From Escherichia coli (GTDB lineage Bacteria; Pseudomonadota; Gammaproteobacteria; Enterobacterales; Enterobacteriaceae), in the NCBI RefSeq assembly GCF_024700885.2, contig NZ_CP117016.1: a stretch of 64,000 bases of DNA; one strand, 5' to 3'. Both the position numbers and the translations under genes were made by a program. Of this stretch, positions 47,282 to 48,029 are shown piece after piece (the stretch's first letter is position 1; each line of letters begins with the position of its first letter). A model generated the notes under the pieces. It was not told where the DNA came from. It saw nothing but the letters and a program-made list of their open reading frames with translations, and made no database searches.

Positions 47282-47337
47282 TGTCATTTTTGACGAAAAC
47301 ATGCCGATGAAATGTCATTTTCGACACTCATCGACAC
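47282..47337. promoter_or_regulatory. FhlA enhancer-type repeats in the hycB-hycA gap (upstream activating sequence for hyp)
   Basis: tgtcatttttgacga (47282-47296) and tgtcattttcgacactcatcgacac (47313-47337); near-identical to the motif at 47966-47987. Confidence 0.6.
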
Positions 47338-47386
47338 GCCCATCCCCAAACAGGCGTAACGCCTGCAAAACGGGCAAAGCCTCAGC

Positions 47387-47848
47387 TCATGCTGCCGGGC
47401 TTTGTCCCTTTACCAGTTGGCTTAAATTCACCGGCACATTGTTTTCAATGGCGGTGTATAAGCTGTCGTAAACGCCAGCGATTTTTTCGAGATAGTGTTC
47501 CAGAACCTGTTCGCGATCGCGGATGTTGACCTTGCCATCAATCATGCCGTCAATGCTCAGTTGCGCCTGCGCAATCCGCTGTTTGTCTTCACCATCTTTT
47601 GTTTCGACGTAATACTCGATGGTGTGGCTGTTAAAGCCATCCGCCAGGGTGACGTAAATGCGAAAATGTTCAAAAAGGACGAAACAGAGTTCTTTGTCCG
47701 GCGCGCAGCTCATGGCGTGATGCAGGCGCGCTTTCGATAACGTGATCCCCTGAACCAGCGAATTGCAGTAGATGTGCCACTGGTCCTGTAGGCGACGATG
47801 CCGCTGTGCGATGTAATCGGCTTTCTCGCTTATTTCCCAAATAGTCAT
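47387..47848 (-). CDS. hycA: formate hydrogenlyase regulatory protein HycA
   Basis: 153 aa; first gene of hyc operon. Confidence 0.95.
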   Translation of the reverse strand: MTIWEISEKADYIAQRHRRLQDQWHIYCNSLVQGITLSKARLHHAMSCAPDKELCFVLFEHFRIYVTLADGFNSHTIEYYVETKDGEDKQRIAQAQLSIDGMIDGKVNIRDREQVLEHYLEKIAGVYDSLYTAIENNVPVNLSQLVKGQSPAA

Positions 47849-47885
47849 TGTCAGGTTACCCGTTTAACAGAGATGCCAGCTTTAA

Positions 47886-47900
47886 GCATTTTTTGTGCCA
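47886..47900 (-). promoter_or_regulatory. sigma-54 promoter of the hyc operon
   Basis: Minus-strand TGGCACAAAAAATGC (GG-N10-GC), 38 bp upstream of hycA. Confidence 0.7.
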
Positions 47901-47950
47901 ACTTTTAATTTATTGTTATTAAAGCGATTTTTAAGCTAAAGATGAATTTC

Positions 47951-47987
47951 GTCGCCGTGTCGACGTGTCATTTCGACATCATCGACA
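47951..47987. promoter_or_regulatory. FhlA upstream activating sequence in the hycA-hypA gap
   Basis: gtcgccgtgtcgacg then tgtcatttcgacatcatcgaca (47966-47987), repeated motif shared with 47313-47337. Confidence 0.65.
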
Positions 47988-48013
47988 TTATTCACCGCAG
48001 GGATAATCAACAC

Positions 48014-48029
48014 TGGCACAATTATTGCT
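48014..48029 (+). promoter_or_regulatory. sigma-54 promoter of the hyp operon
   Basis: tggcacaattattgct fits TGGCAC-N5-TTGC, about 30 bp upstream of hypA. Confidence 0.75.

Follow-up and report, generated by a model that had tools for sequence, protein, structure and literature searches.

Escherichia coli is already known to control hyc and hyp through divergent sigma-54 promoters and two FhlA enhancers, which are textbook features. Between 1990 and 2000, the Bock laboratory reportedly described divergent NtrA/sigma-54 promoters with FhlA upstream activating sequences at hyc-hyp, and its footprint and deletion work is said to have placed the hyp enhancer between hycA and hycB. FhlA is reported to bind the hyc/hyp sites physically, and the far site, in the hycA-hycB gap, is reported to have been assigned to hyp by deletion analysis.

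Genome-wide studies have covered the same region. Sigma-54 ChIP-seq in E. coli gave the motifs TTGGCACAAAAAATGCT for hycA and CTGGCACAATTATTGCT for hypA, and the study notes that the two had been confirmed before and lists hypA as activated by FhlA (PMC4591121); the hycA/hypA spacer was also recovered by genomic SELEX (PMC8743547). In Salmonella, ChIP-chip identified the same promoter pair, its starts separated by 114 bp, and both operons are given as dependent on sigma-54 and FhlA (PMC3844500). Formate is listed as the FhlA signal, and a consensus attributed to Leonhartsberger et al. 2000, CATTTCGTACGAAATG, is quoted in the same paper (PMC4987338). A 14-position FhlA matrix derived from 13 characterised sites has been printed as well (PMC7658346). 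Activators of this class function as oligomers that loop the DNA and open the closed complex with energy from ATP, and their enhancers can act from either side and at kilobase distances (background in PMC3844500).

Several sigma-54-dependent systems invite comparison. The fdhF upstream activating sequence of K-12 carries the same YGTCR half-sites as the hyc/hyp enhancers and, like them, serves a sigma-54 promoter, but fdhF has one promoter and one nearby enhancer with no remote second, and its matrix score is lower (8.1 compared to 11.7-17.2 for hyc/hyp). The enhancers of norVW (NorR) and glnAp2 (NtrC) are likewise multi-site enhancers for a sigma-54 activator, every NorR site being needed at norVW (PMC4987338); however, they use other activators and recognition sequences, and neither system puts an enhancer beyond a neighbouring gene.

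Identity of the locus and its sigma-54 promoters

The stretch of E. coli chromosome that was analysed (64,000 nucleotides, hereafter the window) carries hycB, hycA, hypA and fhlA (Table 1), and a larger comparison showed hypF, hydN, asc, hyc, hyp and fhlA to be co-located within it. Many E. coli chromosomes share the hycB-hycA-hypA stretch at 100% identity, and a match with the same gene names was found in 5425 of 5426 complete E. coli genomes. Compared to K-12 MG1655, a single base differs across both intergenic gaps (47925), with 25 substitutions, mostly coding, over 2.1 kb; the strain is not K-12. The locus is the same as the hyc-hyp control region of K-12 and shows no substantive difference from it, the gaps being identical except for 47925 and the promoter sequences being those of the sigma-54 ChIP-seq sites. 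Comparison with the E. coli chromosomes and K-12 also confirmed the gene identities that had been proposed in an initial reading of the letters (the sequence-only reading). In identical E. coli records, the fhlA product is annotated as "formate hydrogenlyase transcriptional activator"; the true start of fhlA probably lies a little downstream of the TTG from which the open reading frame 51715-53829 is counted.

Table 1 Coordinates of genes, promoters and enhancer sites in and around the hyc-hyp control region of the window.
Feature	Position	Strand	Sequence	Remarks
hycB	46651-47262	minus		
Far enhancer, site B	47282-47298	minus	TTTCGTCAAAAATGACA	start 31 bp from the start of site A; FhlA matrix score 11.7
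Far enhancer, site A (duplicate of the near enhancer)	47313-47336	minus	TGTCGATGAGTGTCGAAAATGACA	best FhlA matrix match of the window, 17.2
hycA (putative antagonist of FhlA)	47387-47848	minus		between the two enhancers; ATG at 47848
P(hycA), sigma-54 -24/-12	47886-47900	minus	TGGCACAAAAAATGC	one mismatch to TGGCAC-N5-TTGC; equals ChIP-seq site OS27
IHF-like bend site (predicted)	47906-47918	minus	TAACAATAAATTA	one mismatch from WATCAANNNNTTR; in the A+T-rich spacer from the near enhancer to P(hycA)
Extension of the near enhancer	47950-47965	minus	CGTCGACACGGCGACG	more YGWCR half-sites; part of the half-site maximum of the window
Near enhancer	47966-47987	minus	TGTCGATGATGTCGAAATGACA	half-sites TGTCG, TGTCG and TGACA, starts 9 and 8 bp apart
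P(hypA), sigma-54 -24/-12	48014-48028	plus	TGGCACAATTATTGC	no mismatch to TGGCAC-N5-TTGC; equals ChIP-seq site OS28
hypA	48060-48410	plus		ATG at 48060
fhlA (activator gene)	51715-53829	plus		downstream of hypABCDE; longest open reading frame, counted from TTG

The sequence-only reading had placed one copy of a repeated motif in each of the two intergenic gaps and -24/-12 promoters facing each way, and all four features were found where it had put them. Both -24/-12 elements are identical in sequence to the published ChIP-seq motifs (OS27 for hycA, OS28 for hypA), their TGGCAC elements are 114 bp apart (47900 to 48014), and matching promoter motifs were kept in 81/81 sequences of the comparative set described below, for hycA and hypA alike. 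The transcription starts are estimated at 47874-47875 (hyc) and 48039-48040 (hyp). A loose sigma-54 pattern was not rare in the 64-kb window (9 occurrences compared to 6.5 expected), so that the pattern by itself proves little; we regard P(hycA) and P(hypA) as real because of their identity to the ChIP-seq sites and their complete conservation, and not because of a pattern count. The scan for sigma-70 promoters and terminators yielded nothing above chance.

Together, the two promoters form a 27-nt inverted repeat (47874-47900 and 48014-48040) that is 81% complementary. The similarity does not stop at the -12 element but continues into the start region, both ending in ...AGCTGGCA, and this extra similarity beyond -12 fades outside Escherichia and Salmonella.

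With -24/-12 promoters on both sides, upstream activating sequences that resemble characterised FhlA sites (matrix scores 17.2, 16.2 and 11.7, from a matrix probably trained on these sites) and the cognate activator gene fhlA downstream of hypE at approximately 51715-53829, the region is very probably the divergent hyc/hyp control region of the E. coli formate regulon. The value of the case lies in calibration, as promoters and enhancer motifs were placed correctly from raw sequence; it carries little weight as a discovery.

FhlA-type sites in the two intergenic gaps

On the plus strand, the two copies of the repeated motif read TGTCATTTTCGACACTCATCGACA (47313-47336) and TGTCATTTCGACATCATCGACA (47966-47987). 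Local alignment of both intergenic gaps paired them at 22/22 positions with two 1-nt indels and a score of 34, which was reached by none of 2000 mononucleotide shuffles (mean 16.4, maximum 29). A gapless repeat finder recovered TGTCATTT three times (47282, 47313 and 47966) and TCATCGACA twice. The duplication itself was thus upheld, but the description of the copies as "nearly identical" masked the two indels, which shift, copy by copy, the half-site pair that holds the canonical 14-bp spacing. The enhancer proposed for the hycB-hycA gap was also found, not as the single element proposed but as at least two separate sites 31 bp apart; the interval given for the region, from 47282, already took in the third related site, TGTCATTTTTGACG (47282-47295), and left it undescribed.

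The FhlA matrix (14 positions, built from 13 characterised sites) was scanned on both strands over the whole 64-kb window. The best two matches among roughly 128,000 positions fell into the two motif copies, at 47313-47326 (TGTCGAAAATGACA, 17.2 of a possible 17.2) and at 47974-47987 (TGTCGATGATGTCG, 16.2), and site B (CGTCAAAAATGACA, 47282-47295) scored 11.7. This agrees with the FhlA-type character assigned by the sequence-only reading, but the test is partly circular: the hyc/hyp sites are probably among the 13 training sites, so the matrix shows that characterised sites are present and does not amount to an independent prediction. YGWCR half-sites were also counted, without the matrix, in stretches of 56 nt (background mean approximately 0.5), with hydN, a third FhlA-controlled promoter, as a positive control. 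The densest stretches in 64 kb were the hycA-hypA gap (six half-sites at 47937-47992, the maximum of the window), the hydN enhancer (35615-35670; five) and the hycB-hycA gap (five).

The hydN-hypF enhancer (about 35615-35670) resembles the hyc/hyp enhancers in its dense cluster of five YGWCR half-sites upstream of a sigma-54 promoter (35557-35572); in contrast to them, it has a different half-site arrangement, its best 14-mer scoring only 7.0, and serves a single promoter. The hydN-hypF promoter reads TGGCATGATTTGTGAA on the minus strand, and its enhancer is poor by the FhlA matrix even though its half-site density ranks among the top three. In the comparison with fdhF, which the sequence-only reading had named as a reference, the fdhF core CGTCAAAACTGACG was identical to site B at 12 of 14 positions.

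A scan of the 64-kb window with the published 16-mer consensus was less informative. The enhancers never came closer to it than five ungapped mismatches, and the two matches with three mismatches (3334 and 26953) fall outside the enhancers. CATTTCG, a half-site of the consensus, occurs exactly at 47969 in the near enhancer, and the closest local approach is site B (CATTTTTGACGAAAAC). As the enhancers contain no full-length match, the consensus is useful at the half-site level only.

Conservation and spacing across Enterobacteriaceae

A HycA scan with one genome per species gave 80 loci from Escherichia, Salmonella, Citrobacter, Klebsiella, Enterobacter, Kluyvera, Kosakonia and other Enterobacteriaceae; counts are given over 81 sequences. 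In all 80 loci, hypA is divergent from hycA-hycB, and both promoters and both enhancers were kept across them, with the promoters in 81/81 sequences and site B and the direct repeat of the far enhancer in 79/81 each. The direct repeat is that of site A and has the form TGWCGA-N3-4-TGTCGA, with a 10-bp period in 76/78 orthologues.

Site B (CGTCAAAAATGAC in its conserved form) is the most conserved block. It begins 33 nt upstream of the hycB start codon and ends 20 nt before it, and this start at exactly 33 nt was found in 67/78 loci. Among 29 representative species, a 16-nt block on the minus strand within 47282-47298, TTTCGTCAAAAATGAC, was invariant, and its conservation exceeds that of every other FhlA-type site. 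Two constraints may act on this block, one from FhlA and one from the initiation of hycB translation. In the same 29 species, the conserved islands of the hycA-hycB gap were GTGTCGAnnnGTGTCGAAA(A)TGACA and the 16-nt block, and those of the hycA-hypA gap were the hypA ribosome-binding site, the hyp promoter, the enhancer (ATGTCGA..GATGACGAAATGACAyGTCG), an A+T-rich IHF-type stretch and the hyc promoter.

The hycA stop codon is followed by 40-60 additional nt in Escherichia, Salmonella, Citrobacter and Intestinirhabdus (47338-47386 in the window). The insert contains a G+C-rich hairpin (47351-47365, CAGGCG-TTA-CGCCTG) followed by TTTGGGG. In other genera, which are without the insert, the hycA-hycB gap measures only 67-97 nt.

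The near enhancer, whose three YGWCR half-sites are in helical phase, forms one conserved block across the 29 representative species. Of its extension, the ACGTCG at the beginning is conserved and the remainder is variable. Measured from its centre, the near enhancer is approximately 100 bp upstream of the start estimated for hyc, and 27 bp separate its edge from the hyp -24 element. The IHF consensus was matched strictly in 32 of the 81 orthologues and in a relaxed form in 24, the window included, and 25 were without a match; in the four examples printed, the strict IHF-type motif starts 18-19 nt from TGGCA. An enhancer at about -100 and an IHF-like site before P(hycA) is the standard layout of an enhancer-dependent sigma-54 promoter.

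The spacing between the inner edges of the two promoters was 91, 101-102 or 111-115 bp, with no intermediate values, and shortened spacing occurred in several separate genera (the Pseudescherichia group, a subset of Citrobacter, Enterobacter ENT03 and Kosakonia). Distances from the enhancer anchor fell into similar classes: the hyc promoter lies 49, 60-64 or 71-72 bp away, the hyp promoter 40-42 or 50-53 bp. These values suggest that spacing changes by whole helical turns (steps of about 11 bp), as expected for a face-specific looped complex, with few independent events behind the pattern. Because its distance to the hyp promoter is also quantised, the near enhancer may have a role at hyp as well. 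What the comparison across 80 species adds to the known picture is that the second site of the far enhancer is the most conserved and that spacing appears to shift by whole helical turns; selection at the RNA level may also act on part of the far enhancer.

Assignment of the enhancers and other readings of the far element

In the proposed mechanism, FhlA, encoded at the end of the hyp cluster, would be activated by formate, bind the enhancers as an oligomer, reach the closed complex of sigma-54 RNA polymerase by DNA looping and open the promoter with the hydrolysis of ATP. The near enhancer would serve hyc, and the far enhancer, beyond hycA, would serve hyp. HycA, encoded between the enhancers, would oppose FhlA, and with fhlA lying downstream of the hyp genes the circuit would therefore have both positive and negative feedback. 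That FhlA contacts exactly these bases is a supposition from general knowledge of enhancer-binding proteins, as are the suggested roles of IHF and HycA and the presumed transcriptional link between fhlA and hyp.

The assignment of the far enhancer to hyp, which draws on geometry and on the reported footprint and deletion work, is in our judgement likely to be correct. Site A lies approximately 715 bp upstream of the estimated hyp start and 550 bp downstream of the estimated hyc start; for the far enhancer, the figures are approximately 730 bp upstream of the hyp promoter and 565 bp downstream of the hyc start. The near enhancer would be hard to loop onto hyp because 27 bp from the -24 element is too close. 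The geometry (27 bp for the near enhancer, about 730 bp upstream for the far one) agrees with the proposal of the sequence-only reading that the hyp enhancer lies beyond hycA.

Conservation of the far element might alternatively stem, partly or wholly, from a function of the hyc mRNA, as a hycA-hycB stem-loop and/or as part of the hycB translation initiation region. We consider this unlikely, although several observations point towards it. The sequence around site A is imperfectly palindromic, and the RNA between hycA and hycB folds better than its shuffled versions (z = -4.5). A 7-bp stem, nnnTGTC-N6-GACAnnn (47310-47329), was 94.5% paired compared to 89.7% in shuffles, had 23 cells changed on both sides compared to 8.0 expected, and reached a covariation score of 0.28 compared to 0.17, which was matched by none of 500 shuffles and exceeded all slid controls. 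Of its three outer pairs in E. coli, two are G.U pairs that can form only in the hyc-sense strand, and the constant distance of site B from the hycB start codon fits a role in translation initiation. On the other hand, four of the seven stem pairs coincide with the invariant FhlA half-sites, a symmetric preference of FhlA for purines and pyrimidines would imitate pairing, and sets of related sequences can outscore every shuffle even when no structure exists, a caveat of the covariation method. Part of a stem arm is lost in Enterobacter-type loci, the far-element RNA had no Rfam match (a scan of 47150-48150 returned nothing meaningful), and RNA as the sole cause cannot explain why the motif recurs at the near enhancer, at hydN and at fdhF. 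From sequence comparison, the covariation of the 7-bp stem could reflect an RNA hairpin, the purine/pyrimidine symmetry of FhlA recognition or arm-to-arm correction of a quasi-palindrome. A 15-bp hairpin over site A in E. coli was rejected as a candidate, its pairing (79.3% compared to 78.3% in shuffles) being no more than column composition predicts.

It is also doubtful, but conceivable, that the far enhancer has a dual function, with site A acting as an mRNA stem-loop (nnnUGUC-N6-GACAnnn) and site B lying within the hycB translation initiation region. If so, the same bases would act on the transcription of hyp at the DNA level and, at the RNA level, on hycA/hycB expression or the stability of the mRNA, and this would explain why the 16-nt block is invariant across genera, far beyond FhlA sites elsewhere.

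A second alternative leaves the far element (47282-47336) an enhancer, but one that is not dedicated to hyp and acts on hyc from downstream or on both promoters; one route to such shared action would be that FhlA at both enhancers joins into a higher-order oligomer with hycA looped out. We judge this reading, its oligomer variant included, to be improbable. It is consistent with the same three-half-site architecture and the same strand of both enhancers, with the phasing of the near enhancer relative to both promoters and with the general knowledge, mentioned above, that enhancers of this class act from either side over kilobases. However, deletion analysis is reported to have given the far site to hyp, the near enhancer, lying at about -100 and accompanied by an IHF-type site, already provides hyc with a full unit of the standard kind, and cooperation between the enhancers is required by no result of this analysis.

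A further reading, in which the far element serves an internal sigma-54 promoter from which hycB-I is expressed apart from hycA, is very unlikely. The far element is directly upstream of hycB, and hycA contains a good sigma-54-like motif, TGGCACATCTACTGCA (47764-47779, minus strand, the sense orientation of hycA), but the 20 nt between site B and the hycB start codon leave no room for a promoter, and an internal hycB promoter was rejected for lack of space. The intragenic motif, for its part, lies upstream and not downstream of the far element. It was rejected as a promoter because it tracks the conserved Trp and Cys codons of W-x-x-Y-C and because the main text of the ChIP-seq paper gives no separate site for it (PMC4591121); it is probably a by-product of coding.

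Finally, the idea that the repeated motif is a chance likeness of two A+T-rich intergenic stretches, which could appeal to the shortness of its exact pieces (8-9 nt), can practically be dismissed, being refuted by the matrix scan (the two copies are the top two FhlA matrix matches in 64 kb), by the retention of both copies across genera and by the shuffles, none of which reached the alignment score.

Elsewhere in the window, TGGCACGCAATCTGC at 29889-29903 on the plus strand equals the published norV sigma-54 promoter motif, and the NorR-controlled norVW locus is therefore also present in the window.
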